DNA of 63,975 nucleotides, filler included, from an uncultured Methanosarcinales archaeon (lineage in GTDB: Archaea > Nanobdellota > Nanobdellia > Woesearchaeales > CAYSVS01), in assembly GCA_964434475.1 (NCBI GenBank). It is 21 parts of 21 records of this genome, joined end to end, with 100 filler letters (N's around TTAATTAATTAA, not from the genome) between each part and the next. Parts side by side here need not be neighbours in the genome. Positions count along the whole stretch, not along the records: positions 29,460 to 32,281 come from CAYSVS010000096.1; 20 more parts are not named here. The stretch is one strand, 5' to 3'. Position numbers and translations under genes: made by a program. Numbering within the stretch: the first letter of the stretch is position 1; every line of letters starts with the position of its first letter. This document shows positions 7,414 to 61,760 of the stretch, piece by piece. The notes under the pieces were generated by a model. The model saw only the letters and a program-made list of their open reading frames with translations, was not told the origin of the DNA and made no database searches.

Positions 7414-7486
7414 GGCGCCGTGGCCAAGCGGCTAAGGCGATCGGCTGCAACCCGATTATTCCTGGGTTCAAGTCCCAGCGGCGCCT
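7414..7486 (+). tRNA. tRNA-Cys(GCA)
   Basis: Acceptor GGCGCCG/CGGCGCC, anticodon arm ATCGG-CTGCAAC-CCGAT, T arm CTGGG-TTCAAGT-CCCAG, discriminator T. Confidence 0.93.
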
Positions 7487-12893: not shown

Positions 12894-13904
12894 CTAGATA
12901 AGATTAAAAGTATCAATTAATAACTTTTGATCTTCGTTAGTTATAATGATTTTATCAAGAATATCTTTGTTCAAAGGTAAAACTATTTTGATAGAATAAA
13001 TTGTTTTAGCAATATTGATAGCTTTTTCCGGGCTCCAGTTTAATTTTTTTATTTTGAGCTGCCTTTCGATTTCTTTGTAAACTTTATAAGCCATAAAAGA
13101 TATACAAACATGTGCATCTATTCTGTGCTCAAGTCTATGATATATCGGTCTGATCTTTAAATCAGTCTTAGATATCCTAAATGCCTTTTCTATTTTCCAT
13201 AAATGCTTGTAATTGCTTATTACATCTTCTTTTGTCAATTCTGTATTAGTATAATATCCTTTCAGACCATCCCATTTAGCATCTTCATGATAAGCATCTT
13301 TGTCTATGCTTACTTTAGTCTCTCCTTCCATTGTTAAATATTTGTTATATCCACGCTTGTTTATATTTGCTTTCGTAAGCTTGCCTGATTTAATTTGTTT
13401 TTCAAGTCTTGCTAAACCTTTTTGTCTATTTTTCTTGTCTTTCTTTGCCCTGCTCTTGCTATAACTGATTATTAATTTAATGTTATTATCTTTTTCTATT
13501 ATCTTGCTTTTTCCATCTTTTAATTCTAAATTTAGTATCTTCTCTTTTATTGCTTTTGTTTCGGACTTGATCCTTGCCCCAAGAATAAAGTCATTGCCTT
13601 TCTCTTGTAACCGCTTTATATTCTTGCTTGATAGCAAGCCAGAATCTGCTATAATTGTTATGCAATTGATTTTATACTTTGATTTGAAGGATTCTATTAC
13701 TGGAATTAGCGTGTGACCTTCAAATTTGTTGCCTTCAAATACCTCATATGCTAAAGGATAACCCTCTATACTTACAAGTAAGCCAAGTACTATTTGTGGA
13801 TTTTGATGTTTGCCGTCTTTTGAAAATCCAGTCCTTCGTAGTTCATCCTCTTTGTTGATCTCAAAGTATAGTGTTGTTACATCATAGAACAATATACTAA
13901 TATT
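12894..13904 (-). pseudogene. IS1634 transposase, C-terminal part
   Basis: FYDVTTLYFE, GFSKDGK, IIADSGL, YKHLWKIEKAFRISKTDLKIRPIYH. Confidence 0.9.
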
Positions 13905-15307
13905 GGTAAAGTCCATATCTTTGTGTAAAAAATAAAAAAGGTATCACTCCAAAGTTTTATATTTGAAATTGAATTTAATAACAAAACAAGGAGCAATACC
14001 ATGAAATGCAAATTAAAACCTTCTGACCAATTAACCAAGATATTGGAAGAGATACTATTATCAGAGAAAGAGAATCTGATGGCAGAGCTAATAATAACAG
14101 CAACAGAAAAGATAGCACAGGAAGCTTTAGAGAGTGAAATGAGCGACTTTCTGGGTAGAGGTTGGTATGAACATACCCCAGATGATTTTCGTGGCTACAG
14201 GAACGGTTATCAGCCAAAAAGATATAAAACAGCTGAAGGTGTGCTGAATCTGATAAAACCAAGAGTACGGGGAAATGAAACACCATTTGAGAGCCAGATA
14301 ATGAAGCGTCTGAATGTAATAGAAGAGAAACTAAAGCATATAGCGTTAGAAAGCTACGTAAGAGGATTATCTACACGTGATATAGAAGAAACATTCCAGG
14401 ATGACCAAGGGAAAGCTCTTCTATCAAGAAGTAGTGTCAGCCAGATGTCAAGCAAGCTGTATAAGGATTATGAGGAATTTGCATCGAGGGATCTGTCGAA
14501 CTATGATGTAGTATATATGTATGTAGATGCAGTATATGAATCGGTAAAACAGTACACAAACAAGCAGGCGATCTTTTGCTGCTGGGCGATATGCTCTGAC
14601 GGAACGAAGCAACTATTGCACATAATGGCAGCAGATAAGGAAAAGACAGACAGCTGGAATGTATTTTTCGAGGATATGCTCAATCGTGGTTTAAGACAAC
14701 CGCTATTGATCGTCAGCGATGGTTCGCAGGCGTTAATAAGAGCAATAACTGAATCATTTCCGAGGGCAGAGAGACAGCGTTGTATAGCACATAAGATGCG
14801 TAATCTGCTTGCAAAAATACCACAAGATTCGCAGACAAAGATAAAGAACGAAATACATTCGATATATTACGCACCAGACAGGGATACTGCAGACGTATTG
14901 TCGGAGAAATTCATAAAGAACTATGCAGATGTATATCCATCAATGATAAAGTGCTTTATGGATGACCTGAATGCTTGTTTAACGCATTTGAAATATCCTG
15001 AGGGGCATCAAAAATACATCAGAACTACAAATTTAATAGAGCGTGCGTTCGTTGAGGAGAAGCGAAGGACTAAGATCATACCTCAACATATAAACGAGAA
15101 AGGAGCGATTGGATTAGTCTTTTCTGTATTGATTAGAGCTGCTAAGAAATGGCGAAAGATAACGATGAGCGAACTTGACTTAACTCAGCTACTCCATTTG
15201 CGAAAGCTGATGGTACCTGAGATAACAGATGATAATAAAATCTCATACAAAACTGTTGCGTGATACTATGAGAAATTTTATTTTTACACACAAAAAAAGA
15301 CTTGACC
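13905..15307 (+). mobile_element. IS256-family element
   Basis: Imperfect TIRs GGTAAAGTC...GTGTAAAAA / TTTTTACAC...GACTTGACC; 8-bp target duplication CTAATATT at 13897-13904 and 15308-15315. Confidence 0.93.
14001..15263 (+). CDS. IS256-family (Mutator-like) transposase
   Basis: YRNGY, YVRGLSTRDI, YVDA, VSDG, QRCIAHKMRN, RTTNLIER. Confidence 0.95.
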   Translation: MKCKLKPSDQLTKILEEILLSEKENLMAELIITATEKIAQEALESEMSDFLGRGWYEHTPDDFRGYRNGYQPKRYKTAEGVLNLIKPRVRGNETPFESQIMKRLNVIEEKLKHIALESYVRGLSTRDIEETFQDDQGKALLSRSSVSQMSSKLYKDYEEFASRDLSNYDVVYMYVDAVYESVKQYTNKQAIFCCWAICSDGTKQLLHIMAADKEKTDSWNVFFEDMLNRGLRQPLLIVSDGSQALIRAITESFPRAERQRCIAHKMRNLLAKIPQDSQTKIKNEIHSIYYAPDRDTADVLSEKFIKNYADVYPSMIKCFMDDLNACLTHLKYPEGHQKYIRTTNLIERAFVEEKRRTKIIPQHINEKGAIGLVFSVLIRAAKKWRKITMSELDLTQLLHLRKLMVPEITDDNKISYKTVA

Positions 15308-23875: not shown

Positions 23876-24037
23876 GATTCACCTCCTCTCTTTCAGTTTC
23901 GGGCACGGCGCCGGTAAGAACCCGGCGGATCACCTTTTCGGTATCGGAGAGTACGCGAAGCCAGGCAGTCATACCCGATTCATCGGGATACCCTTATTTA
24001 CGGGCTTACTGAAACGAGGTTCGTTGTTGGCCTGAGA

Positions 24038-25678
24038 TTAGGCATCATTCGCTACAGTCATGGGTGGCTGCATTGTTTTTACGCTGCCGTCTTTATGCTC
24101 CATCCTGACTCTGCCGTCAGAGTAGACATGAGTTGCTGTCCAATCGGGCGAGATGTGACTTAGCAGTGTAATGATGTTCTGACGGAGTTGCTCATCCGGG
24201 CCGATGAGGTTCGCCCAAAATCGGTTGAGGTCTTCCTCAAAGGCGAATAGTTGCGTATCGTAGGTATCCCCATCTTCATACCAGCCGCCCAGATGATACC
24301 AGATCTCATAAGATTGGAGGCGATTCTGTGCTTGAGCTGTGACCATGATGTGATCATCCGTCCAACATGGCTTGGTTTTCAATGAAAGCGGCGCTTTGGC
24401 CATGCAGACAGGAGAGGAGAAGACTTTGCTGTCACTGGTATGTACAGTAATGCTCAACTCGCCCACGCAGGTCAGTTCACCTGACCACAGGCATTCACTG
24501 TAAAGCTTATTGCCGAGTTTCACCTCAACTTTCCCGATTGTCGGCAACATGGCCCAGGAATAACCATCGTAAAATGAGTTGATGCTGACGGGTATGAAGG
24601 GATCCTTGAATGTACCGAGCGCCGCCAGGATATGTGCATTTACATCATCACCATCCGCGCCCTGCGCCTTGGAGTCGAAGCGATAGCAACTCTTCAGGGG
24701 GAAGGTTTCGGGCATGACAACCTCTACCGGTTCCGGAGATTCCGTATCAGCAAGCAGCCCTGTGTCGAAAGTTGGCTTTGCCTCGGGAAGCGTGATACCG
24801 AGCTCCTTGGCACGGAGGAATTCCTTGTACGGCAGCTTGTGCTCTCCTTTACTTTCAATGTAGCGGTACGCCTCCATCTCGATTGCCGCCAGTAGTTGCT
24901 TGTATACGTCGTCCTCCACGAGACGTGTTCGGGCCGGCAGCATCAACCGGATTCCGGTTGGCCCACCTGTAAGATCCACCAGATAGCACAGCCTGTGGTC
25001 ACTGATCGGGTGATAGTCGAATGTGACGAACTGTCCGTGGAAATTAACGATCCCCCTATTGATGAACCATCGGTCGCCCCTACATGACTTGTGCCACCGG
25101 GTCAGTTGCGCGTATTCAATGATTTCTATCTTACAGCCCAGTTCAGGATGACGGGCGGCATTCCCAGACACAAACGGCAGCATGGGGCAGCGTTTTCCAT
25201 CCACTATTACCAGCATACCGGAAAAGACGGCGTTGATGTCCACTTTCGACAATTCCCACGGCTCATCCTGGAACCGCAGGATAGCGCCTTTTCGTACCGG
25301 CGTTGGGTCATCAAGAACCTCAATTGGCGCACTCGTCCAGCCATCCTTTGTAATGGTGGCCATCTTGCCCTTCGACCGAATGATAACTTCGCGCGGCGCC
25401 AGGCAGAATATACCAACGCCTGCGGGGTCTTCACTTGCTTCACAGGCATCGTTCCAGTCTGATCCGCCGAGATCCAGAAGCTTGGCAAAATTGCCTATGC
25501 CATGGCCGTTATCCTTAATTGTTACCCAGCCGTCTTTGTTTCCGATGCTGACTTTTGTTGCACCAGCCCGCCGGGCGTTCTGCAGGAGCTCAATTATCCT
25601 GCCACGTAAGGTGCCGGTAAAGAGCCTGTCTGCTTTACCCAGCAGTCTTTGGTTTACACATGCTTGTATGGTTTCCAT
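24038..25678 (-). CDS. GHKL (HATPase_c) domain protein
   Basis: ELLQNARRAGAT, IKDNGHGI, AGVGIF motifs; AAGGAGG RBS. Confidence 0.85.
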   Translation of the reverse strand: METIQACVNQRLLGKADRLFTGTLRGRIIELLQNARRAGATKVSIGNKDGWVTIKDNGHGIGNFAKLLDLGGSDWNDACEASEDPAGVGIFCLAPREVIIRSKGKMATITKDGWTSAPIEVLDDPTPVRKGAILRFQDEPWELSKVDINAVFSGMLVIVDGKRCPMLPFVSGNAARHPELGCKIEIIEYAQLTRWHKSCRGDRWFINRGIVNFHGQFVTFDYHPISDHRLCYLVDLTGGPTGIRLMLPARTRLVEDDVYKQLLAAIEMEAYRYIESKGEHKLPYKEFLRAKELGITLPEAKPTFDTGLLADTESPEPVEVVMPETFPLKSCYRFDSKAQGADGDDVNAHILAALGTFKDPFIPVSINSFYDGYSWAMLPTIGKVEVKLGNKLYSECLWSGELTCVGELSITVHTSDSKVFSSPVCMAKAPLSLKTKPCWTDDHIMVTAQAQNRLQSYEIWYHLGGWYEDGDTYDTQLFAFEEDLNRFWANLIGPDEQLRQNIITLLSHISPDWTATHVYSDGRVRMEHKDGSVKTMQPPMTVANDA

Positions 25679-25716
25679 TTCGATTACCTCCTTATCTTTC
25701 TATTGTCAGAAAACTT

Positions 25717-25751
25717 AAAAAAGCCCTCTGGTTATGATTTCCAGAGGGCTT
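25717..25751 (-). terminator. Intrinsic terminator-like hairpin
   Basis: AAGCCCTCTGG...CCAGAGGGCTT stem with T-run on minus strand. Confidence 0.7.
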
Positions 25752-25807
25752 GTGGATGAAACGCATCTTCAGTGGCTTATAATTATACTCTTGCCTGTTG
25801 TTCCTAC

Positions 25808-26044
25808 TTAGATATCAAGTTGTTTGTTCAGGGCCCCCTCTCTATAGCCGTTTTTCATCTTCACAGTTCCCCATCCGTAAAACCATGACCTCCAGTCAAC
25901 CTCGCTTCCGATCTTCCTGGCACGTTCCACCATGTCCAAAGCCTCCCGGTGCGTTTCAAAGGGCCCTGCTACCAAGTTGAATCGGTCGCCGTCCACTATC
26001 GAAACATAATAGCATTCGCTGTCTGTCCAGTTCCCGCGTTTCAT
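25808..26044 (-). CDS. Small hypothetical protein (phage/plasmid-like)
   Basis: GGAGG RBS before MKRGNW...; AGPFETH motif. Confidence 0.6.
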   Translation of the reverse strand: MKRGNWTDSECYYVSIVDGDRFNLVAGPFETHREALDMVERARKIGSEVDWRSWFYGWGTVKMKNGYREGALNKQLDI

Positions 26045-27871: not shown

Positions 27872-28708
27872 TTATTTTCTATTTTTTGTTTTTCTTTCAA
27901 TCAATCCTGAATACTTCTGTTTAGATATTATTTGTTTTCCTGTTTTTTTCTCAATTTCTTTGCGAGTATTATGCGCAACTTCTCCGCCTTCTTTTGCAGA
28001 ATCTTTGCATTGATGCAATCCTTTTGAGTTTTTTGCAACAGTTATGTCTGTTGTTGCTTTTTCGCCTACCATAGTAAGTATAAGTTCCCAATCAGTCATA
28101 TGGTCTCTTAAGTTTTGGTTTTTCTTTTGCAAATTTTTGAATTCTTTATACTTTTGCACAGTCTTTCCGAAAGTGGCTTTGCTTATCTCATTTGTAAGTA
28201 TTGCATAATCTGTTTCTTTATTAACACCTCTTGATCTCCATTCATCAGTCAAACTTTGTCTTATTGCAATACCTCTTAATCTTTTATCAATCCATTCTCT
28301 AGGATATCCTTTAAGTTCGTAATAGTTTTTTATTCTATCTTGGCCTAATTCAGGATTTTCTATCTCTTGTACTCTTTCATATCCTACTTTGGCAAGCCAC
28401 AGTTTGAAAGGCTCAGCTTTTTTTGAAGGTATTGATTGGATTAGCCTAAACATATTCTTCGTGTTTGCGCAGTCTGTACTGTAATATTTGCCGTCAGCTG
28501 CTTCCAATTTCAGTTGTACCCAAATTGGGGACAACTCAAGAGTCTTGAATTCTCTATCTTTAATTTTACCCCAATACTGCCTAGGTGTTGGACTATCTGT
28601 TAATACTTTAATAACATCAACGATGGAGAAATACCATTCATCATTATGCCAAATTCTCCGTATTTTTTTGTCTTGAAATACAACAAGAGCATTATTTTGT
28701 TCTTTCAT
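27872..28708 (-). CDS. Bro-N domain DNA-binding protein
   Basis: FQDKKIRRIWHNDEWYFSIVDVI, RLIQSIPSKKAEPFKLWLA, NLRDHM. Confidence 0.9.
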   Translation of the reverse strand: MKEQNNALVVFQDKKIRRIWHNDEWYFSIVDVIKVLTDSPTPRQYWGKIKDREFKTLELSPIWVQLKLEAADGKYYSTDCANTKNMFRLIQSIPSKKAEPFKLWLAKVGYERVQEIENPELGQDRIKNYYELKGYPREWIDKRLRGIAIRQSLTDEWRSRGVNKETDYAILTNEISKATFGKTVQKYKEFKNLQKKNQNLRDHMTDWELILTMVGEKATTDITVAKNSKGLHQCKDSAKEGGEVAHNTRKEIEKKTGKQIISKQKYSGLIERKTKNRK

Positions 28709-29359: not shown

Positions 29360-29531
29360 NNNNNNNNNNNNNNNNNNNNNNNNNNNNNNNNNNNNNNNNN
29401 NNNTTAATTAATTAANNNNNNNNNNNNNNNNNNNNNNNNNNNNNNNNNNNNNNNNNNNNTATGATTTTAACGAAGATAACAACATTAGAATTTTCGGTTT
29501 TAACCTCTGTGGAGACGAGCCCCGAATTGAG

Positions 29532-29554
29532 TTTAACATTAGGACACTGTTATA
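29532..29554. other. Palindromic spacer site 1 of cassette-like array
   Basis: TTTAACA-N9-TGTTATA. Confidence 0.6.
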
Positions 29555-29621
29555 ATCTTCCGTTAGGAACGAGGAATAGTTTGCAAGACGGTTTTTGACG
29601 AAGTCAAAAAATTCCGAAGAG

Positions 29622-30265
29622 TTAATTCTGAGTGCCGTTAAGTATGTATATATAAAAAGATTTTTAGTTGTGATATGAAACAAATTTATGAATAAATTTG
29701 GGAATTAGCAAAACCTTATTATGAAAAAGGTCGTTCTATGGATATTGATCATATAGAATGTATGATGCAAGATGCATTTTTTATTTGTAAAAAGGAAAAC
29801 CTTGATGATTCTCTACTGCTTCCATTAGTGATATTACATGATGTTGGATATGCTGAAGTACCAAAGGATAATCCATTCAAATTAAATTTAAGAAAAGCAC
29901 ATATGGAAGCAGGAGCTAAAATTGCCAGACAAATATTAGAAAAATTAAATTATCCTAAAGACAAAATTGGAAAAATTGAATATTATATTTCAGTTCATGA
30001 TAATTGGGCTTTAGGAGACAATTCAGTTTATGAGGATGATTTAATTTTGGCGGTTTTTACTGATTTAGATTATATATGGATGGCTACACCAAAAGGTTTT
30101 CCTGCTTTAATGAAAATTTTGGATAAAAACAAACAAGAAATGCTTGAATATTTGGAAAAAAATGACAAACCCAAACTAAGACCTTTTTCTACAAAAACAA
30201 CTAAAATTGTTTATGAAGAATATCTTGCAGATAGGCGAAAAGAAGTTCTAGGCACTCAGAATTAA
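29622..30265. mobile_element. Putative gene cassette 1 bounded by a perfect 15-bp inverted repeat
   Basis: TTAATTCTGAGTGCC (29622-29636) / GGCACTCAGAATTAA (30251-30265). Confidence 0.6.
29675..30265 (+). pseudogene. HD-domain phosphohydrolase with an early in-frame TAA (ORF track starts at 29738)
   Basis: MKQIYE*IWELAKPYYEKGRSMDIDH...ILHDVGY...HMEAG...HD...DLD. Confidence 0.75.
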
Positions 30266-30349
30266 TTGATTATAAGATCGGGCCCTGTTAAATGAGGGTG
30301 AGCCGAAGGCGAAAGTGCAACGTCCCCGAATGACTGAAAGGAAGGAGAG
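30266..30349. repeat. Structured inter-cassette spacer
   Basis: TATAAGA-N8-TGTTAAA, then AGGGTGAGC..GAAG.CGAAAG.GCA.CGTCCCC shared with 31292-31365. Confidence 0.7.
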
Positions 30350-31291
30350 TAATTTTTAGTGGCGTTCAATCAAATGAGCGAATGCGATACATCAAGAACA
30401 AGAAGCAAGGGGACAATCTCTTTTTACTTTTTTTAGGGGAGGGGCTTTTTTGTTTCTTTTTTTAAAATAACAAAGTAGTTTTTAATGATATCTTTATTTC
30501 CTTATATACAATCTTCTTGACAAGATTCTTTTGTTTCAGGGCATGGACAACCTTCCCCTTGACAAACCATTTCGTCACATATACCATCGCCACATTTGTC
30601 TTCACAAATATTTGAAGGAATAGCACTATCTAGTGTCTCTGAAAATAAATCTCCTTCAGGAGTTTCACAATATGGCTTGCATCCAATACAATCAGGATAT
30701 AAAACTTCATAACCTGCTTCAACACAAGAATTAAAATCAGTTACTGGAACAATTCGTTTATCTGCTTTTGTAATTTCTGAGTAAGTCACATTATTGATAC
30801 TACCACCTTCAATTATCATGCTTGTCTCAATTTTTTCAAGATTAGTAATATTAGTTTTATTAACTTTATATTCATATACTAATTCAAAACATCCAGTTCC
30901 ACAAATTATCGGATCTGATTTTAATTTAAGATTATAACCATTAAGATCATTGTAATTATAACTCTGTTTGATTCTTTTTTCAGCTATTTGTTTTGCTTCA
31001 TTAACTGTTATTTGATTTTCTATCTTTTTATTTTCATAATTAAATTTTCCCAGAAAACCTATTATTGATATAAAAGATATTATTAATGCTAATGTAATGA
31101 AAATCCAAATTATTATCTTTACTTTATTATTAACCAATTTCATATATATGTGTAAATGTTAATTTATTATAAATTTTTCTAGTAATTTCGAACAACGAAG
31201 TTGTGAGCGTAAATGTGCGTAGCACCAGCCTCTCCCTTTTTTCTCTTTTGTTTTAATTGTCCTCCCTTCTACTTTTAGCCACTAAAAATTA
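30350..31291. mobile_element. Putative gene cassette 2 bounded by a perfect 14-bp inverted repeat
   Basis: TAATTTTTAGTGGC (30350-30363) / GCCACTAAAAATTA (31278-31291). Confidence 0.6.
30502..31143 (-). CDS. Membrane-anchored exported Cys-rich protein
   Basis: N-terminal TM; FNSCVEAGY..CETP and CEDKCGDGICDEMVC...CPETKESCQEDC modules. Confidence 0.8.
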   Translation of the reverse strand: MKLVNNKVKIIIWIFITLALIISFISIIGFLGKFNYENKKIENQITVNEAKQIAEKRIKQSYNYNDLNGYNLKLKSDPIICGTGCFELVYEYKVNKTNITNLEKIETSMIIEGGSINNVTYSEITKADKRIVPVTDFNSCVEAGYEVLYPDCIGCKPYCETPEGDLFSETLDSAIPSNICEDKCGDGICDEMVCQGEGCPCPETKESCQEDCI

Positions 31292-31431
31292 TTTCATTTA
31301 ACATCGGGGTCCCTTGTTATACAAGGGTGAGCGTAACGCAGTGAAGCGAAAGCGCAGCGTCCCCTTGAGTAGAATTTTTACGTTTATTCATATCGAACGA
31401 AGTGAGTCAAATTTTAAAAGTTTGGGGCGTT
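31292..31431. repeat. Structured inter-cassette spacer plus left arm of a third unit
   Basis: TTTAACA-N11-TGTTATA, CCCTTGT-TAT-ACAAGGG hairpin, conserved block, ends TTTGGGGC-GTT. Confidence 0.7.
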
Positions 31432-32233
31432 AATAAGAAATAATCTTAATAAAATTACCTTTTTTAATCCACTCTTCGTGTTTTACAAGCTTCTCTGAAA
31501 AATCTTGAAACCTATCTGCCACACGATGAATTGAACCATCTGAATTAAGAAATTTAGGATTAATATATCTCAATTTAGTTCTAGAATGAAAATGAAAGTC
31601 ATTCGGGTCATCAATAATCTTTAATTTTGGGTTGAGCATTTCCAATTTTTTTAAAATCAATTGATTGCCTGATTCTTTTAGTTTTGTATAAACAGCTAAA
31701 TCATCATCAAATAAGTCTTTTTCATCAAGTATTTTTTCATCCAAAGCAATTTTTATTGCATCGGCTAAAATTTGAAATAATGCTACTTCAAGGGGATGAG
31801 ACCATTTTTCTTCATCCATTCTTAGATAATCTTCTGAAAAACTTTTTGCAATTAGCTCTCCATTAATAATAATTTCATTGTTTTGAACCATAAAACTTGA
31901 AATATATTTATTTATTTTATCACTAAAACCTTCACTCGCTACCATATCCCTTAATGTATAATCTATCCTATCTGCACATAAGTCAGGTAATGATTTTTCT
32001 AATAAGGAGAAATTATGTTCATCTAAAATCCTATCAATATCAAAATTAAATTTTTTTAAGATTGCAGGTATTTCTGATTGAAGTATTATCTTTGCATGAA
32101 ATTTTTCATGGAACTCATGATTGTGGTTAGTATCTTTAAATACAAAATCAATCACATGTGAAAAGGCAGTATGAGGAATATCATGAAGTAATCCTGCTAT
32201 TTGTTCTTCAATTGATGCACCTAATTTTCTTAA
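31430..32233 (-). pseudogene. HD-domain phosphohydrolase interrupted at its 5' part by repeat C element
   Basis: Frame continues upstream of 32155 as LRKLGASIEEQIAGLLHDIPHTAFSHVID; LCADRIDY; runs into repeat C. Confidence 0.8.
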
Positions 32234-32281
32234 GGGAACTTTGCAAAATTAGCAAAAACGTAAACTCTATATATCTACTTG
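32234..32281. repeat. Contig-end repeat C copy
   Basis: Matches other C copies; preceded by TAA. Confidence 0.85.
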
Positions 32282-40890: not shown

Positions 40891-41836
40891 GGGTTCATCC
40901 GGAATAAGGTTCAAATAATATTCTAAATATGAGATTAATCATTCTTACCATATTAAAAAGTATAATTGACCATCCAAATTCTCTCTTTTTAGTATGAGGC
41001 AATTTGCTTCTTAATTGTGGTTTCATAGTTTTTAATGCGTGCATAACACTTTCAACAGTATTCCTTCTGGAATACTGTTCATTTCCTTTAACACATCTTT
41101 TTCTGTTTGTTCCTTTTGGAATTTTTCGCATATTTCTAACTGGTGCAAAAAGTATATTCCCTAAACTTTTTGCTAATTTATGTAATTTTTCAGAGTCGTA
41201 TCCTTTATCTGCTAAAACTAAAATATTCTTCCAAATCATTCTTTTAAATATTGTTGTGGCACCCAAAACATCATGTCTGGGTTTTACTCTTAAAACCCAA
41301 TCATGTATTAATAAAGTATCGGCATCAATTAAAATATCAGCCTTTGCGTAAGGCATATGCTCCTCTATAAAACCACACTGTTTTATTCTTCGTTCATAAT
41401 GTCTACTTCGTTGCCATGAATCAATTCCTGTGGCATCAATCGCCATTATTTTAGGTGTTTCTTTTTGTATTTGTTTATGTAGAAATTTTCTAATGACTGA
41501 AAGGTCAAACAATTTAATCCAATCATTTAAAGTGCTTTTCCCTGGAATTTCTTTTAATCCTAACCACTTAGGCCATTTTGTTTCTTTCAATTCTACTAAA
41601 AAATTAATTAATGATTTTTTACTACGAATATATAGGAGAATTAGTGAAACTCGCTGATAATTCTTAAAAAACTTAGGACCTTTGTGATTATAGTTTAATG
41701 GAAGCTCCATTAAATGACAAAGTTTAATAATATCCTTATGTAACTTATTTTCTTGTATACTGAGTATATTTTGCATGGCTGAACACCTCGCAATTTAGTA
41801 TTCAGTATACATATTTATTCTTTTCCGGATGAACCC
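40891..41836 (-). mobile_element. IS5-family insertion sequence
   Basis: TIR GGGTTCATCCGGA / TCCGGATGAACCC. Confidence 0.9.
40895..41776 (-). CDS. IS5-family DDE transposase
   Basis: AIDATG, LADKGYDS, YSRRNTVES motifs. Confidence 0.92.
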   Translation of the reverse strand: MQNILSIQENKLHKDIIKLCHLMELPLNYNHKGPKFFKNYQRVSLILLYIRSKKSLINFLVELKETKWPKWLGLKEIPGKSTLNDWIKLFDLSVIRKFLHKQIQKETPKIMAIDATGIDSWQRSRHYERRIKQCGFIEEHMPYAKADILIDADTLLIHDWVLRVKPRHDVLGATTIFKRMIWKNILVLADKGYDSEKLHKLAKSLGNILFAPVRNMRKIPKGTNRKRCVKGNEQYSRRNTVESVMHALKTMKPQLRSKLPHTKKREFGWSIILFNMVRMINLIFRILFEPYSG

Positions 41837-46980: not shown

Positions 46981-47926
46981 GACAGTGTTTAATCATCAGC
47001 AATATAGATTAAGCTTTGCTTTTAGCAAAGCCTTAATCAGGCTGTACCAATTCCAATTTCCAAACCCTGCTCTTTCTGCAGGTGTTTTCCAATTGAGAGA
47101 TTTGTGAGGCCTTATGAAATTATAGTAGTTCCTAAAAAACTTCAAGAATTTGTAAGCTGTCTCCAACTTACAAAATCTTCTCATTACCTTATAGTTCTCT
47201 TTTACAGTATTGTGGAATCTTTCAATAGGATTGTTCTTAAACTTCATTTTCCATGCTGGAAAATGTATATGTTTAACTTTTCCCCTGCCAAATGTCTTTC
47301 TTATTGCAGGAGGATAATCAAAACTATTGTCTGTATGAATTTTTTCTGGATACACCACAATTGATTTCTTAACCTTCTCAATAAACTTCCTTCCCTCAAA
47401 TTCATCTCTTTCATAACTTATGTGATCAGCAACTAAAAATTTAGTTTCATAGTCGATACAATCCCAATAGTAGATAAAATCCCTATCTCTTTGGCCTTTT
47501 TCTCTAAAGAAGATTTCATCTGCATGTGAATCAATTGAGTGTGATAATTGAAAAGATTTGGTGAAATTATCAATCATTTCACCAAATTTATTTTGCCAAT
47601 GCAAAATAGCAGATCTGCTTATTTTGACATTGTATTTCTGTAATATATGCTTAGCTATTTTTCCATAACTCAAGCCTTGTGCTCTTAAATCTAGGGCAGT
47701 AGCTATTATCTCTGGTTTTGTCTGTACATTTTCAAATCCTTTTCTATCTACATAGAGTTTTTTGCATCGGTTGCAAAGATATCTTTGTACAAAACCAGAT
47801 TTATTTTTTCTAAGTCCTGCTTTAACAGAATCAGTTTTTTTGCAATAAGGACATTTATGCATTTAATCACCTCAGATAGCTTTGAGATGTACTCATATAT
47901 TAATCTGCCGATTTAATAACACTGTC
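46981..47926 (-). mobile_element. IS6-like insertion sequence
   Basis: Inverted ends GACAGTGTT / AACACTGTC around transposase; no target duplication seen. Confidence 0.8.
46996..47862 (-). CDS. DDE transposase with N-terminal Zn ribbon (IS6/IS240-like)
   Basis: CPYC...QRYLCNRC, HADE, IHTD, NNPIERFH, YNFIRPHKSL..KTPAE. Confidence 0.88.
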   Translation of the reverse strand: MHKCPYCKKTDSVKAGLRKNKSGFVQRYLCNRCKKLYVDRKGFENVQTKPEIIATALDLRAQGLSYGKIAKHILQKYNVKISRSAILHWQNKFGEMIDNFTKSFQLSHSIDSHADEIFFREKGQRDRDFIYYWDCIDYETKFLVADHISYERDEFEGRKFIEKVKKSIVVYPEKIHTDNSFDYPPAIRKTFGRGKVKHIHFPAWKMKFKNNPIERFHNTVKENYKVMRRFCKLETAYKFLKFFRNYYNFIRPHKSLNWKTPAERAGFGNWNWYSLIKALLKAKLNLYC

Positions 47927-47962
47927 ATATGACCTACTCCCCAACATGAATGTTGGGGTATC

Positions 47963-48379
47963 TTAGGCAACTGCGTGGTGCTGTGCCTGATTCTTGATAT
48001 AATTCTCGACAGTAGAATATTCATTATATCCAACAGTTGTTGCGCAACCGCCTGCACTCCAAAGATGTCCTTGTGGAAGTCTTAGTCTGCTTTTTTCATG
48101 ATTCTTGAAAAAATAATAAGCTGAGCCACCCTTAATCAACTGCATGCCTTTTGATTCAGTTATATTGTGGTGCAAAGTGACCATCATATGAACATGATCT
48201 GGCATAATTGAAATGGTATGTATTTTGATATTGTGTCTATGGCATATTTTACGAATTGACGCTTCAACAAGGTGTTTTTGCTTAAATTTACCGAACATTT
48301 TATATCTATATTTAGTTCCAAACTCAATGTGCCAGAAATTTACGCCAATTTTGTGGCTGTAATGTTTTAGGTTTGTCAT
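47963..48379 (-). CDS. tnpA: IS200/IS605-family Y1 transposase TnpA
   Basis: WHIEFGTKYRY, HUH motif PDHVH, KGGSA, LWS, YIKNQ; flanking hairpins at 47939-47958 and 48495-48508. Confidence 0.92.
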   Translation of the reverse strand: MTNLKHYSHKIGVNFWHIEFGTKYRYKMFGKFKQKHLVEASIRKICHRHNIKIHTISIMPDHVHMMVTLHHNITESKGMQLIKGGSAYYFFKNHEKSRLRLPQGHLWSAGGCATTVGYNEYSTVENYIKNQAQHHAVA

Positions 48380-48563
48380 TTTCGTCCTCCGCAGACGAAA
48401 GCTCAAGCTACTATAATATGCAAGAATTATAGCGCAGTTTCGTCCGCAGTACATACTGCGGCGAAGCCGCGATAAAAATATTTCTAGAAATAAACGACCT
48501 AAAGGTCGGGGAATTAAACCCAAGTGCTCGCTACGCTCGCATTAAAAATTATTTTAAGCAAAA

Positions 48564-50583: not shown

Positions 50584-51423
50584 ATGACTGAACAAAATAA
50601 TGCTCTTGTTATATTTCAAGGTAGAAAAATAAGAAGAACATGGTTTAATGAAGAATGGTGGTTTTCTGTATTTGATATAGTTGAAGTTCTTACTGATAGC
50701 TCTGATTCAAAGCAATATATTAAAAAGATGAAATCACGAGATGAATCTTTAAATGATAAGTGGGGTACAATTTGTACCCCACTTGAATTAATCGCACCTG
50801 ATGGTAAAAAGAGAAAAACGAATTGTATTAGTGCAAAAGGCGCATTCAGATTAATACAATCAATCCCTTCTAAAAAAGCAGAGCCTTTTAAGCAATGGCT
50901 AGCTCAAGTGGGTTATGAAAGAGTACAAGAGATAGAAAATCCTGAATTAGCGCAAAAAAGGATGAAAGAGCTATATAGACAAAAAGGTTATTCTGATAAT
51001 TGGATAGAAAAAAGGGTTAGAGGAATTGCTATAAGAGATGAATTAACAGATGAATGGAAAAAAAGAGGGATGGAAGAAGATAAAGAATACGCTATTCTAA
51101 CTGCAGAAATATCTAAAGCAACTTTTGGCATGACTCCAGCAGAATATAAACAATTCAAAGGACTAAAAAATGAAAACTTAAGGGATCATATGGATGATCT
51201 AGAATTGATCTTCACAATGCTTGGCGAAGCATCCACTACACGAATAGCTAATGATAAAGATGCTCAAGGATTTATTGAAAATAAGGATGTTGCAAAAAAA
51301 GGCGGAGAAGTTGCTGGAACAGCAAGAAAAGAACTTGAGAAAAAAAGCGTTCGAAAAATAGCATCATCAGAAAACTATCTTTCTGAGCTAGAAAGCAAAA
51401 AAAAATTGAAACACAAAAGATAA
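50584..51423 (+). CDS. Bro-N domain DNA-binding protein
   Basis: Paralogue of 27872-28708 with the same motifs. Confidence 0.9.
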   Translation: MTEQNNALVIFQGRKIRRTWFNEEWWFSVFDIVEVLTDSSDSKQYIKKMKSRDESLNDKWGTICTPLELIAPDGKKRKTNCISAKGAFRLIQSIPSKKAEPFKQWLAQVGYERVQEIENPELAQKRMKELYRQKGYSDNWIEKRVRGIAIRDELTDEWKKRGMEEDKEYAILTAEISKATFGMTPAEYKQFKGLKNENLRDHMDDLELIFTMLGEASTTRIANDKDAQGFIENKDVAKKGGEVAGTARKELEKKSVRKIASSENYLSELESKKKLKHKR

Positions 51424-53932: not shown

Positions 53933-54167
53933 TATTACCCCTCCATAAAAATAATATTTAGTTAGTATTCAAGAATAACAACTGGTATATAAAGTTTTTG
54001 ATAGCCTAATTTATATGTACGATTTGAAAATTCTTGCAATTTCTATATTTATTAATTTTGCAATATTNNNNNNNNNNNNNNNNNNNNNNNNNNNNNNNNN
54101 NNNNNNNNNNNTTAATTAATTAANNNNNNNNNNNNNNNNNNNNNNNNNNNNNNNNNNNNNNNNNNNN

Positions 54168-56053
54168 GATATGTTGCAACGTTTCGTTCAGTTCCGCGGC
54201 TTTGTCCAGCAAGCCTTGCAGCCCGGCGGTTTCATAGCTGTCTTCGGCAGAGGGTTCTTGGCCGTACCATTCCACGATGAATGCATCGATACCCACCGAC
54301 CAGGCGGTCAGGATGTCGTATTCCCAGACGCGTTCCCGTTGCGAATCAAACTGACCAAAAATGCTGCTGTCGGTGATGCCGCCCTTGTTGGCCGCGTCCC
54401 AGTGACGATTGGCTTGATTATTATCAGCATCGCCGTACCAGGGCGTGTACCAGGCGAACAGCTCGCGCTCGACGCCGATCTCGTCATCGAGTTCCTGATC
54501 GCGGGAATAGGCGTAACCAAAATCGGCCCAGTTCACGGAATTCTGTCCGCTCATCTGCAGGGTGTAATCTGCATTGGAAGAAGTCAACGCATAGTGCGCG
54601 GGCAGTGTGGTTGCATCCACCACCACTTTAAATTCGCCCTGCGGCACGTTTTTAAAGAGATAGCGGCCGTTTTCGTCGGTTTGGGCTTTGGCGACCTGAT
54701 TGCCGTTGGCATCCAGCAAGCGCAAGACAACGCCGGGAATCGGCGGTTCGTTCGCATCCTGTTTGCCATCCTCGTTCAGATCATTCCAGATATAATCGCC
54801 GATGGAACTGATGTGGCGCATGTAACCGAAATTCACATCCTCGCGATGTTCTTCCGGTTCCAGGTTGACGCCGATCTGATCCGACGCGGTGGTCAGCCAG
54901 TAATCTTCCCAAACGGTTGTCGGATCAACCGCCACGGTCCACGGATAACGGGCGCGGACATTGGTGAATTGATACGTGCCGTTGCCGGCGGTTTGGGTCG
55001 TTTCCACCACATTGCCATCCTTGTCGAGCAAATTAATGACGACATTGGGCATCGGATTTTCTTGGCTTGCCTTGACGCCGTCTTCATTGTTATCGATCCA
55101 CACCAGGCCGCTGATCTGACCGGGATTCGGCGCATAGCCAAAGTCCGCGTCTTTATAATCCTGACCGGCAACCAGCGTCACGGTATAAACCTCCGTCGGC
55201 GTGGTGCGGTGATGTTTCGGTTCAATGGTCGACAAATCCACCTCGACCTTGTAGACGCCGGGCAGCAAGTCGCCAAACTCGTACAAGCCGCTCGCATCGG
55301 TTGTCGTCGTGGTGATCAACTGATCATTCTGATCCAGCAACCGCACTGTAACATTTTCGGCCGGGTAATCATCGTTGTTGAACACCCCGTCTTCATCCAT
55401 ATCGTACCAGACAAAGTCGCCAATGGATGCGGGTTTGGGCGCATAGCCGAAATCGGCATCCAGATAATCCGTCAACGGCTGCAACTGCACCTGAATGGTG
55501 TTTTGCCCCGGCGAGGTGCGTTCCCAATTTGCCGGGATGCTCGTTTCATCCACCTCGACAACATAGGTTGCAGGATACAGCCCCGGGAACTCGTAAGAGC
55601 CGTCCGGCTGCGTTGTGGTGGTGGCGATGGTCGAGCCGTCTTTTTTCAAATTGACGGTAATACCGCCGAGACCGGTTTCAGTCGGGTCCTGATCGCCTTC
55701 CCAATCGAGATCCTGCCAGACATAATCGCCGATTTTCGACGGTTCCGGTTGATAACCGAAATCGGCATCTTGAAAAACTTCTTCCTTGGCCAAATTGACG
55801 GTCAGAGGATCGTTGGCCGTGGTGAGGTTGTACTGCGCCGGAACGGTCGCATCCACCACGTTCACCGTGTAGGTCCCCTCTTTCAAGCCGTCAAAGATCG
55901 GATAATAACCGTCCGAATCTGTTGTATGAGTATCGACAACCTGACCCTGATCATTCAGCAGTTGAACCTGAACATTCACCAGACCGGGTTCATCCGGGTC
56001 CTGAACACCGTCGCCGTTATAATCGGCCCAAACACGGTCACCGATGCTGCCGG
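54168..56053 (-). CDS. Large bacterial surface protein fragment: SdrD B-like repeats followed by a GH99/GH71-like glycoside hydrolase domain
   Basis: Repeated IGDYVWxDxxxDG...DADFGY; AWYTPWYG..HW..FDS..GIDAFIVEWYG; high GC. Confidence 0.8.
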
Positions 56054-59199: not shown

Positions 59200-59961
59200 T
59201 TAGTTTTTATGACCTCCTTTCTTGAGTTCTTTTGCTCTGTAACTTGGGCCCTTTATATTGATAATACTAGAGTGGTGTACTATACGATCCAGAATGGCAG
59301 TAGCCAAAATATTATCAGCAAAAATATCTGACCATTGTTCAAAGGATTTGTTTGTAGTTATTATGACAGAGCCTTGCTCATAACGTTTTGATATTATCTC
59401 AAAGAAATCATCAGCGCTATAATCAGGCAATTTTTTAAAACCCAGTTCATCCATAATTAAAAGCTCTGGACCTAAATAGTGGTTTACCTTTTGATAATAG
59501 CTATTGTCTGCCTTTGCTGTATTTAAATTTCGCAGCATTTCTGATACTGATGTAAATAAAACCTTATAACCTTTCTTCAACGCCTGAATGCCTATTGCAG
59601 CGGACAAGTGCGTCTTTCCTGTGCCAGGATTTCCTATAAAGACAATATTCTTCCGCTCTTTTATAAAATTACAAGTAAGGTAATCATTTATATCTCGCTT
59701 GTTAATCGTAGGTTGAAATGAAAAATCAAAATCTTCTATTGTTTTATGTGCTGGTATTTTTGCCTTAGAATATCTTTTTTTATAACTATTATCTCTGCGA
59801 TTATTTGTTTCATCTTCTAATAATAGTTCCAAAAACTCCCTGTATGATACACTCTTGTCCTTGGCAAAACTAAGCCTTTCTTCTACTGAATTATATATCC
59901 CTGAAAGCTTAAATTCTCTTAATCTATTCATTAATTGATTGCTCATCTTTAATTCCTCCAT
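59200..59961 (-). CDS. istB: IS21-family helper ATPase
   Basis: FDFSFQP, GNPGTGKTHL, LIMDELG, ITTNK, AILDRIVHH, GPSYR. Confidence 0.95.
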   Translation of the reverse strand: MEELKMSNQLMNRLREFKLSGIYNSVEERLSFAKDKSVSYREFLELLLEDETNNRRDNSYKKRYSKAKIPAHKTIEDFDFSFQPTINKRDINDYLTCNFIKERKNIVFIGNPGTGKTHLSAAIGIQALKKGYKVLFTSVSEMLRNLNTAKADNSYYQKVNHYLGPELLIMDELGFKKLPDYSADDFFEIISKRYEQGSVIITTNKSFEQWSDIFADNILATAILDRIVHHSSIINIKGPSYRAKELKKGGHKN

Positions 59962-61356
59962 TTAGTTCATATTAAATTCAACAGGTAAATTATAACTGCC
60001 ATTACCGCATATATTCCTGATAATACTATATTGGTGAACGTTGTAAGCTAAAGCCCTCTTACATGCCAAATTTATTACGTTATCCGGATAGCTCCTTTTT
60101 AATGACAATATTCCTTGAACTATCCTGCCCCAAAATTGTGGCTCAGTTTCTACAATAAAGAAAAACATCTGTTCTGCATAATTACCCACCTCTGCCATCT
60201 TGGCTTGATATCTCTCCTGATACTCCGTTTCTGAGTATCTTTTATAGCTTGGATAGTGATGTTCTTTTGTACTAAATTCTCCTCGTCCTTTTATAACTCC
60301 ATGCAGCGCTATCTCTTTTCCTTCATAGAATATTTTTAAAATATTTTTCCCAAGTTCTATCTCTACTTCTTTTCCTACATATTCAAATGGCACTGAATAA
60401 TAATTATAATCTACATAGATATGACAATCATGATAAACCTTGCGTGTTCCTACTTTTGACATATTGTATTCTTTTTCCGGTAGTGCTATTAATTTTTCTT
60501 TCTCCTCGCTTCTAAATATTTTTTTTGGTATCTTTCTAGTAGTTCCGTGAATGCGACAGTTGCAGATATTGTCTGTCCAGTGAAAAAGCCTTTTCTCTAC
60601 GTCATGACCGTCTTTAAACTTTCGGCCTGAGAAAAAATTACCTTTTACGTATTTTATTCCAGATTCAACTTTACCCTTGTCATTTGGCATTCTTACTCGA
60701 CATGGAATAGGACTAAATCCGTAATACTCTGAAAAGCTCTTGTATAACTGCTGATATACTGGCTCATAGAAGTTTGCTTCTAATATTGCTGCTTTTAAAT
60801 TGTCTATCTTCACATATTTAGGTACTCCTCCAAAATATCTGAACGCATTAATATGACACTGAATAAATGTCTCTACTCGCTGATCATACACCTTCTCATA
60901 GTAATCCATTCTGGAATAAGATAAGCGCATATTGAATACCCAAGTCTTCCGTTTCTTGCCGTTATTATCAGGTGTTAATCCCACATAACCAAAATCAACC
61001 TGAGCTTCTTCGCCGGGTAATGTATGTATCCTTACAAATATATCTTCCCGCTTCCTGATATCTGAAAGATAGTTTTTTACTGTTGAATATCCCACGGGCA
61101 TCCCTTTTGATTTTAGCTTTTCAAATATACGCACTCCGCTTAATCCATTCTCCAGCCATTCCAATATGTTTTCTCTATATATATCCAGAATACGTGGATG
61201 AGGCTTCTTCTCAGGCCGCTCCCTGCCGTTTTCTATCTCTTTTATTGCTTTTGACACCGTCTTCCAGTCATGGCCTGTCATACGAGAGATCATGCTCTTA
61301 TTCTTGTACCGCTCCCATAATGTCTTTATTGTTGTATACATTGCTACTCCTAACAT
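59962..61356 (-). CDS. istA: IS21-family transposase
   Basis: PGEEAQVDFG, FGGVP..DNLK, KGKVE, RIHGTT, YSVP. Confidence 0.95.
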   Translation of the reverse strand: MLGVAMYTTIKTLWERYKNKSMISRMTGHDWKTVSKAIKEIENGRERPEKKPHPRILDIYRENILEWLENGLSGVRIFEKLKSKGMPVGYSTVKNYLSDIRKREDIFVRIHTLPGEEAQVDFGYVGLTPDNNGKKRKTWVFNMRLSYSRMDYYEKVYDQRVETFIQCHINAFRYFGGVPKYVKIDNLKAAILEANFYEPVYQQLYKSFSEYYGFSPIPCRVRMPNDKGKVESGIKYVKGNFFSGRKFKDGHDVEKRLFHWTDNICNCRIHGTTRKIPKKIFRSEEKEKLIALPEKEYNMSKVGTRKVYHDCHIYVDYNYYSVPFEYVGKEVEIELGKNILKIFYEGKEIALHGVIKGRGEFSTKEHHYPSYKRYSETEYQERYQAKMAEVGNYAEQMFFFIVETEPQFWGRIVQGILSLKRSYPDNVINLACKRALAYNVHQYSIIRNICGNGSYNLPVEFNMN

Positions 61357-61500
61357 TTGAACCTCCTTGGTAATCTTTTTCTTCTTATCGCTCTATTACC
61401 CCTGAAGGTTGCTTAATTGTTAGCCTTTTTTACCTCTATTATCTGCTTGATTTACTACCTAAATCAATGCCTATATTAACTTGCCTTTTCTCTTATTTGC

Positions 61501-61547
61501 CTATGGAATTTTCTCTGGCCTTGTCTATGGAGTTTATTCTAGCCTTG
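61501..61547. repeat. Two 23-bp imperfect direct repeats, probable IS21 subterminal repeats
   Basis: CTATGGAATTTTCTCTGGCCTTG and CTATGGAGTTTATTCTAGCCTTG upstream of istA. Confidence 0.65.
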
Positions 61548-61760
61548 AGGNNNNNNNNNNNNNNNNNNNNNNNNNNNNNNNNNNNNNNNNNNNNTTAATT
61601 AATTAANNNNNNNNNNNNNNNNNNNNNNNNNNNNNNNNNNNNNNNNNNNNTTGGGTTCGACTTCATTAATTTGAGCTATACCAATAGTGTTCCGGCAGCT
61701 AGTTTGTCTAATAGTAGTGATAGTCTGGTGTTTGATAAATACAGACAGGAAATTGTTTAT

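Follow-up and report, generated by a model that had tools for sequence, protein, structure and literature searches.

The window analysed here is a stretch of 63,975 nucleotides taken from GCA_964434475.1, the metagenome-assembled genome (MAG) of an uncultured archaeon. One of its contigs, 2.8 kb long (29461–32281), carries three genes and three spacers, and in each spacer stands a pair of inverted boxes (table 1). An earlier note on the interval 30266–31431 of this contig had proposed that the spacer is a folded single-stranded DNA or a dif-like recombination substrate. We consider it likely that the interval holds both boundaries of one cassette (about 30276–31301) in an integron-type cassette array. 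Each boundary would be an attC-type site cut down to its end boxes, the plus strand reading ..YTAA|C, a short remnant and then TGTTA....; after the 3' box would come a conserved hairpin block and then a cassette-specific arm that pairs with a partner beyond the gene.

The three palindromes listed in the earlier note lie where it had placed them: TTTAACA-N9-TGTTATA at 29532–29554, TATAAGA-N8-TGTTAAA at 30271–30292 and TTTAACA-N11-TGTTATA at 31297–31321. Their inverted heptamers, which it had likened to tyrosine-recombinase half-sites, correspond to conserved attC-type end boxes. In the window these end boxes read GTTTAAC/GTTATAA, TATAAG/GTTAAAT and ATTTAAC/GTTATAC; the 5' box of site A has a G at the position where relatives carry a C. 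PMC9668308 speaks of a cluster where two or more sites follow one another at distances below 4 kb and short open reading frames (ORFs) lie between them. Here there are three sites within 2.8 kb.

The second and third palindromes begin 5 nt past a right arm, as had been noted, and both complete pairs of arms are perfect inverted repeats. The boxes behave in the same way. Around gene 1, TTATAATC (29550–29557) is the perfect complement of GATTATAA (30268–30275), at 8/8 positions, and around gene 2, TGTTAAATGA (30286–30295) is the perfect complement of TCATTTAACA (31294–31303), at 10/10. The boxes and arms of the window are thus complementary across each gene, not within a spacer.

The block that follows the box pair occurs exactly twice in the window, with no match in 100 shuffles, and the two copies are therefore not due to chance. 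The first palindrome is a box pair of the same kind, but a different insert of 64 nt follows it, in the place where other sites have the block. The pairs of the CCCT...AGGG stem are present at 30283–30298 and 31311–31327, but are not conserved in relatives. Both C-GAA-G loops are present, one in the 64 nt insert (table 1) and the other, GCC-GAA-GGC, at 30302–30310.

Table 1. Features of the site-bearing contig, in window coordinates.
Feature	Position	Strand	Remark
Site 0, collapsed: 5' box GAGTTTAAC, 9 nt remnant, 3' box TGTTATAATC	29530–29557	+	sequence
Hairpin-rich 64 nt insert, standing where other sites have the block	29558–29621	+	holds TTTTTGAC-GAA-GTCAAAAA (29592–29610)
Cassette 1 left arm	29622–29636	.	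15/15 complementary to 30251–30265
Cassette 1 gene, HD-domain protein	29738–30265	+ (less common strand)	PF01966, E 8.3e-06
Cassette 1 right arm	30251–30265	.	perfect inverted repeat; overlaps gene 1 stop codon
Site A, putative collapsed attC-type site: TT, 5' box GATTATAAG, remnant ATCGGGCCC, 3' box TGTTAAATGA	30266–30295	+	
Block A, 32 nt, GGG/CCC-closed hairpin domain	30296–30327	+	C-GAA-G and GAAAG loops
Linker with small hairpin (GACTGAAAGGAAGG)	30328–30349	+	GAGAG at its end, directly before the arm
Cassette 2 left arm	30350–30363	.	14/14 complementary to 31278–31291
Module 2, separately repeated unit of ~52 nt (GGCGTTCAATCAAATGAGCGAATGCGATACATCAAGAAC..)	30361–30412	+	copies in relatives
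Cassette 2 gene, 213 aa cysteine-rich protein	30502–31143	-	Cys-rich part read from sequence
Module 3, repeated hairpin-rich piece (ACAAC-GAA-GTTGT; GCGTAGC)	31184–31226	+	
Cassette 2 right arm	31278–31291	.	perfect inverted repeat with 30350–30363
Site B, putative collapsed attC-type site: TT, 5' box TCATTTAAC, remnant ATCGGGGTCCCT, 3' box TGTTATACAA	31292–31324	+	
Block B, 40 nt	31325–31364	+	mini-hairpin motifs GCGTAACGC, GCGAAAGC and GCGCAGC
TTGAG, then presumed cassette 3 left arm (TAGAATTTTTACG..)	31365–31383	+	position only, by analogy; partner beyond contig end
Cassette 3 gene, HD-type protein	31430–32155	-	frame open upstream past 32194, includes HDIPH

A site family with covarying stems

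How widely is the block distributed? A strict pattern for it was searched in a collection holding one genome per species, and the loci found carry labels of the form L0xx. The search returned 96 loci, which belong to Patescibacteria, to DPANN archaea and to further MAGs. By the titles as deposited, the 80 titled loci comprise 36 in Patescibacteria lineages, 23 in archaea (Nano-, Woese-, Pace- and Aenigmatarchaeota, ‘archaeon’, and MAGs labelled Methanosarcinales) and 21 in other or unclassified bacteria, an Ignavibacteriota chromosome included. Four GC-rich matches (L008, L038, L056 and L083) look like chance. Viral contigs gave no match to the block pattern. The 32-mer of block A is found identical in L009, L012, L036, L039, L045 and others, and the 40-mer of block B in L010, L011, L014, L015, L027, L059, L067 and others; the ‘..GAG|arm’ junction that follows block A recurs in L012, L033, L039, L040 and L061.

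In most loci the block is directly preceded, on its 5' side, by an imperfect palindrome of 110–220 nt. This full element begins with a 5' box (TTTC/TGTC-NNN-TAAC) and two to three unpaired bases, continues with a stem of 10–12 bp whose sequence varies while its pairing is retained, passes through a branched, variable centre and the return strand of the stem, and ends, after a single base, with the 3' box (GTTAGGCGA, GTTATACGA, GTTAAATGA and similar). An automatic sort of 99 block copies gave 55 full sites, 12 mini sites, 18 unclear, 7 other and 7 cut by contig ends; the 18 unclear copies are mostly full sites by eye. The strict block occurs in 1–4 copies per genome in the five genomes checked, and variants of it come after most sites of an array. 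The arrays can be long: one Nanoarchaeota MAG has 55 covariance-model matches, and there are 7 co-oriented sites on L097, a single contig, and 5 on L098.

The earlier note had named covariation across copies as a check. In 46 full sites, 95.1% of the cells pair, against 80.9% in shuffles (a level reached by 0/500) and 36–53% when the partners are slid. The inner stem shows compensatory changes in 9 of its 11 pairs, and compensatory pairing is also present in an independent set of 18 sites. In the end boxes of the 46 sites, AAC and GTT are invariant or nearly so. The two arms of the stem differ, with 2–3 unpaired bases on the plus-strand 5' arm vs 0–1 on the other.

An attC site has inverted end boxes with the consensus RYYYAAC / GTTRRRY. 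Among the attC features listed in PMC8946536 are end boxes, inner boxes, a spacer without a pairing partner and a terminal structure that varies; the unpaired spacer and extrahelical bases are presented there as the asymmetry that sets the recombining strand. The full element appears to have the anatomy of an integron attC site.

The block is a self-contained domain. Its closing stem, GGG...CCC, is invariant in the first set of 46 sites; in the second set it flips to CCC/ACC...GGG/GGT in 3 of 5 pairs, in an alignment that was model-fitted and has gaps at that place in 7–8 of its 18 rows. The interior holds a variable mini-hairpin, then GCGAAAG, then C-GCA-G or T-GCA-A, and the closing positions of this last loop covary in 44 of the 46 sites.

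The mini-hairpin motifs lie almost wholly on one strand. CGNAG occurs in the 46 sites 98 times on the plus strand vs twice on the minus strand (48 vs 0 in the blocks, 50 vs 2 in the rest of the sites); the counts in 75.7 kb of flanking DNA are 206 and 115. GCGNAGC is found 35 times vs 0 and GCGNNAGC 29 times vs 1. The three window spacers hold seven CGNAG on the plus strand vs none on the minus strand, and within the 64 nt insert CGNAG stands on the plus strand at 29599 and 29615 and nowhere on the minus strand. These counts bear out the earlier idea of stable DNA mini-hairpins. Such GCGNAGC/GCGNNAGC mini-hairpins and d(GNA) triloops are described as extraordinarily stable DNA hairpins (PMC13037366 and PMC3201870), and the exact motifs GCGAAAGC, GCGCAGC and GCGTAGC, together with C-GAA-G loops, occur in the block and nearby. 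Those two papers treat physical stability, in contrast to the role at a recombination site that we would assign to the motifs here. Since the motifs are antisense to the genes, they are unlikely to act in the sense mRNA, and action in single-stranded DNA fits them better.

What, then, are the short sites of the window? A covariance model, R1, built from the 46 full sites matches site B (31292–31370; 70.3 bits, E 1.3e-20) with 72 central model positions replaced by 1 nt, and site A (30266–30333; 49.5 bits, E 5.6e-14) with 74 central positions replaced by none. Both matches span model positions 1–147, and they are the only R1 matches in the window; a box-pattern scan and the model gave no further site on its remaining contigs. 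The inner stem (L boxes) and the terminal loop, present in the full sites of the family, are absent from both copies. The remnants ATC-GGG-CCC-T and ATC-GGGG-T-CCC-TT correspond to the first and last three inner-stem bases of full relatives (L039 and L067). Sites A and B thus appear to be collapsed attC-type sites, and site 0 is of the same collapsed kind. What the earlier note had called a variable spacer of 8–11 bp is, on this account, the scar left by loss of the hairpin interior, not a crossover spacer. Because exactly the interior is lost, replication slippage across the hairpin would be the simplest cause. Short box–spacer–box sites make up ~16 of the 99 copies (12 from the automatic sort and 4 more by eye), with spacings of ~3–12 nt, mostly in DPANN loci and with varied end points. 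Lacking the inner stem, the window copies have probably lost the folding and recombination expected of the family, and they are probably inactive boundaries of fixed cassettes.

Cassette limits and the neighbouring recombinase

If the sites bound cassettes, where does one cassette end and the next begin? The arms give a first indication. For the 77 block copies whose downstream sequence was long enough, we compared the first 90 nt after the block with the region 220–1500 nt further on. In 58 of them the two are linked by a perfect inverted repeat of 12 nt or more, vs 2 of 77 in the control. In the 48 cassettes delimited by arms, the arm has a median length of 14 nt (range 10–24), the body has a median of 620 nt, and the longest ORF lies on the minus strand in 43. 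The left arm typically stands immediately after ‘..CCCC-TTGAG’ or ‘..GAGAG’; after the right arm come TT and then the 5' box of the next site. One cassette on L097 (contig C204 of genome G001, sites 2–3) has arms that are complementary save for their central triplet: on the plus strand one arm reads C-GAA-G there and the other C-GTA-G; the loop motif seems to have been kept on one strand at the expense of pairing.

The boxes tell the same story as in the window. Across a cassette, the 3' box and the next 5' box agree at 8/8 positions in 25 of 48 cases and at 7/8 in 12 of 48, while the two boxes within one site agree at 8/8 in only 2 of 46. Looking automatically for the 5' box that partners the 3' box of the same site gave noisy results for that very reason, the boxes of one site being unlike each other. 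In arrays found with the model only (the Nanoarchaeota MAG with 55 matches), agreement across the cassette is 9/9 in 9 of 12 cases and 8/9 in the other 3, rare box variants included; within sites it is 9/9 in 1 of 16. In integrons such a pattern across cassettes arises because the crossover falls inside the box, and the complementarity of boxes across the gene can be read here, too, as the footprint of cassette exchange inside the box.

Homologous cassettes in different surroundings place the limits more exactly. In all four pairs compared (L019/L063, L048/L068, L007/L053 and L049/L060) similarity stops no more than a few bases past the TAAC of the downstream 5' box. Its beginning, in L019/L063/L091 and L048/L068, coincides with the TAAC of the 5' box upstream. 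We infer from these limits a cut at AA|C on the plus strand, equivalent to G|TT on the gene-sense strand, so that the plus strand would correspond to the ‘bottom’ strand of attC. In gene sense, a cassette would then read TTRRRY.., arm, gene, arm, block and its own site.

Which enzyme might act on the sites? Eighteen loci have a tyrosine recombinase no more than 2 kb from the block. In all 18 its gene follows the block and is read on the plus strand, and is therefore divergent from the cassette genes; on that side, 63 of the 96 loci extend for 1500 nt or more. Complete integrons have their insertion site, attI, beside an integrase that is read divergently. At 10 of the 18 the last 5' box stands 51–127 nt before the recombinase start codon and is followed by the half-site-like TATGCGAA/TATACGAA. 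The best scores of the recombinase are with NF040815 (archaeal XerA / ‘integron integrase’), at 240.6 and 216.3 bits; with TIGR02249 (integron integrase) it reaches 223.7 and 207.3, under the cut-off of 265, and the match is in two pieces. The L018 enzyme has 15 residues where the IntI4 structure (2a3v) has 58, and it aligns without a break to XerA structures. Of the other recombinase matches, sixteen show no long insertion when aligned to the query of 260 aa; those in L059 and L040 are shorter, partial matches. The layout may be taken as that of an integron, with an enzyme that lacks the IntI-specific domain by which integron integrases are defined in PMC9668308.

A second type of site (..TAAT-GGGCGGCGGCTATGCGA.., with repeated GTTGTGCGA) is present at about 1000–1290 of L075, in L029 and at 1812–2000 of L018, placed either next to a block-bearing site or in the stretch that separates the recombinase from the last cassette. 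The junctions ‘..TAA|TGGGCGGCG’ of L075 and L029, at first taken for attI, belong to this other type of site and are not used as evidence.

Taken together, the proposed course of events is as follows. In the relatives the plus strand, antisense and rich in GNA/GNNA mini-hairpins, would fold as single-stranded DNA, and the IntI/XerA-like tyrosine recombinase beside the array would cut the folded site at AA|C of the 5' box. The cassette would carry its own site, the block and the two arms, and from the next box its outer six to eight bases. The block, flanked by the box stem and the arm stem, would make up a three-way junction together with them, and block and arms may be regarded as an extension that holds or marks the folded site.

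Genes, modules and setting of the contig

The HD-domain gene of cassette 1 is the only one of the three on the less common strand. Its conserved N-terminus (WELAKPYYEKGR..) precedes the listed ATG and is in a frame without any ATG, GTG or TTG start; position 29688 has an ATG, shifted by one base against that frame and beside a run of TTT (29688–29740); this is either a frameshift or a homopolymer error. The cysteine-rich protein of cassette 2 has only a weak match to DUF3139, over residues 6–78 and under the Pfam cut-off. The truncated ORF of cassette 3 has no Pfam match.

Two further repeated pieces accompany gene 2. Module 2 is sharply bounded, comes after the left arm in many cassettes, and has copies in L002, L012, L021, L032, L033, L039 and L075; in metagenome contigs it reaches a depth of up to 152, with unrelated flanks on both sides. 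Module 3, upstream of gene 2, is likewise a high-copy unit; it has other flanks in contigs of two runs and carries a GCGNAGC at 31217.

The window as a whole is not one molecule. It comprises 22 stretches of 0.5–4 kb, from 21 linker-joined contigs, one of which has a gap of 10 N. The stretches are ordered by falling length; the linkers (4172–61650) read N44-TTAATTAATTAA-N44, and any feature that spans one is an artefact. Because archaeal marker genes are present on other contigs (topoisomerase VI A and B, ZPR1, a beta-CASP nuclease and RtcA), the bin, with a G+C content of ~31%, is that of an archaeon; the site-bearing contig is linked to it through binning only. One sequencing run contains 0.92 of the sampled words of this contig and may be its source. 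The contigs of four runs showed no joint that removes or circularises a cassette, although contigs cannot reveal rare excision products.

Transposase genes lie on many of the short contigs (12894–15263, 40895–41776, 46996–48523 and 59200–63667): three of the DDE_Tnp_1 type, one Mutator, one IS240-like, one IS200-like Y1, and an IS21 IstB with a Mu-type partner. Composition windows 24001–26000 and 54001–56000 have ~50% G+C against ~31% elsewhere and may be binning contamination. Two contigs have a similar stretch in common (26762 on the plus strand and 49903 on the minus strand), each encoding a Bro-N protein (27872–28708 and 50584–51423); the pair is paralogous or duplicated mobile DNA. A tRNA-Cys (GCA) at 7414–7486 is the sole Rfam or ARAGORN match in the window.

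Weighing the readings

Several observations weigh against an integron-type array. The first concern the window itself. Its sites lack the inner stem, and the predicted folds of its spacers alone, as DNA or RNA and on either strand, are not better than shuffles (z +0.9 to -1.9); folding both strands was a check that the earlier note had proposed. The 64 kb hold no recombinase homologue. An independent assembly of the likely source run is broken between 30197 and 30433, at site A, and the MAG contig is therefore the sole support for the junction of cassettes 1 and 2. The remainder concern the family. The one recombinase checked, that of L018, has no IntI-specific additional domain, and recognition in the manner of classical attC sites cannot simply be assumed. 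In class 1 attC sites the unpaired bases are on the arm opposite to the one that would be cut here; in this family the 2–3 unpaired bases between box and inner stem fall on the arm inferred to be cut. L035 and L074 have a cassette in common but are unlike upstream of its 3' box, and L010/L061 and L058/L090 have a common cassette body with different types of block. Hence the left limit of the cassette is not uniform, or sites are overwritten after transfer, or there is a second point of exchange. Finally, covariation cannot separate DNA from RNA.

Might the sites instead be duplex substrates of a Xer system? Sites of the Xer/dif kind are short and double-stranded, with two arms around a fixed spacer, and there is one per replicon; in the pdif modules of plasmids the sites alternate in orientation. 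The palindromes would then be inverted half-sites around a crossover spacer, and genes would move as modules between them. The XerA-like score of the recombinase, the L018 enzyme without the IntI domain and the ~16 short box–spacer–box copies all lend this proposal something, and the likeness to XerA/dif, XerCD/dif and the pdif modules of Acinetobacter plasmids extends to the length of the enzyme and to genes bracketed by inverted boxes. We nevertheless regard it as improbable. A fixed spacer is required, while the short sites vary from ~3 to 12 nt; most copies are hairpins of 110–220 nt in which pairing, not sequence, is conserved, and the short ones are their collapsed remains; all sites of an array, of which there are up to 55 per genome, share one orientation, unlike those of pdif; and the one-strand bias of the mini-hairpins would have no role in a duplex site. 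The earlier note was thus right in its recombination substrate, in so far as these belong to a family of tyrosine-recombinase sites that seem made to work as folded single-stranded DNA, and wrong in calling it dif-like; of the comparisons that it had named, attC is the one that fits.

An RNA element is less probable still. On that account a processing stem, terminator or small RNA would lie in the spacer, with the arms pairing the two ends of the cassette transcript. The arms do flank each gene and would bracket its mRNA, GAAA-type loops are stable in RNA also, and the covariation fits RNA equally. Against this stand the hairpin motifs, antisense to 43 of 48 cassette genes, and the complementarity of boxes across cassettes with homology that breaks inside the box, which is a footprint of DNA recombination. 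With Rfam 15 there was, the tRNA-Cys aside, no gathering-score match either in the window or among 18 loci; L005, searched at E up to 10, gave no credible match, two weak rows being at chance level; a terminator scan of the contig gave no terminator-like site, and promoter-like sites were at the level of shuffles.

Equally implausible is a miniature transposon-like repeat, in which a transposase would move each gene between terminal inverted repeats with the spacer as its preferred target: perfect inverted repeats of 10–24 nt do flank each gene, modules 2 and 3 do occur in many other contexts and several contigs of the bin do carry transposases, but the repeats differ from cassette to cassette and could not be read by one transposase, they continue into the conserved boxes of shared sites, no flanking direct duplications appeared on reading the junctions (which were not counted), and the tyrosine recombinase is the only gene consistently found beside the arrays.

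How does the integron-type array compare with systems already known? The repeats of sedentary chromosomal integrons, such as those of Vibrio cholerae, are over 100 nt long and mutually very similar, with many cassettes per chromosome. The present sites share this length and similarity and can be many in one genome; the difference is that conservation here extends across phyla and both domains, and that the strict block is limited to the 1–4 copies per genome given above. There is likeness, too, to the archaeal attC sites and to the integrase-less attC clusters (CALINs) described by Ghaly et al. (2022; PMC9668308). In those arrays short and mostly co-oriented ORFs alternate with imperfect palindromes whose end boxes are conserved, the contig of most arrays carries no integrase, and near-identical sites occur in both domains; the carriers listed include Nanoarchaeota and Pacearchaeales MAGs. 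Archaeal integrons, integrase-less attC clusters in Nanoarchaeota among others, and near-identical archaeal and bacterial attC sites are therefore already in print (PMC9668308). What differs is the conserved hairpin domain of 30–45 nt and the cassette-specific arms of 10–24 nt outside the end box, together with the lack of an inner stem in the window copies and of the IntI-specific domain in the neighbouring recombinase that was checked. GGGTGAGC and CGTCCCC are missing from one supplementary text file of PMC9668308, and the site family may still be in that paper's set. Our literature search, which did not extend to subscription journals or bioRxiv supplements, turned up no paper on the site family, on its block and arms, or on integron-like arrays in Patescibacteria. 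By their sequence, block and arms would be structural parts beyond the classical attC site that we have not found described elsewhere.

A more far-reaching picture can be offered tentatively. The extra helix of IntI is held to have enabled recombination of single strands (PMC7790495). Patescibacteria and DPANN archaea might share an integron-like system whose recombinase never acquired this helix, or lost it, and in which the DNA carries extra structure instead. The cassette-specific arms and the conserved mini-hairpin domain at the three-way junction would hold the site in its fold or offer it to an enzyme of Xer type, and pairing of the two arms of a cassette in single-stranded DNA would loop out the gene and join its two sites for excision. 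Such a system would be either an intermediate between Xer and integron or an independent solution.

Among the known means by which single genes are gathered, integrons are the principal one, and the origins of their cassettes and of their use of a folded single strand are at issue. The present family provides natural material for both: attC-like hairpins, a recombinase without the hallmark domain, and extra DNA structure outside the site. The key issue is whether such a recombinase can use the extended hairpins. Searches that require a classical integrase would class these arrays as integrase-less clusters, and the breakage of such MAGs into contigs of 2–4 kb arises because assemblies break at these repeats. 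The contig described here, all three of its sites being collapsed, documents the decay of the system and not its working form. Near-identical sites in ultra-small bacteria and archaea, for their part, point to gene traffic between the two.

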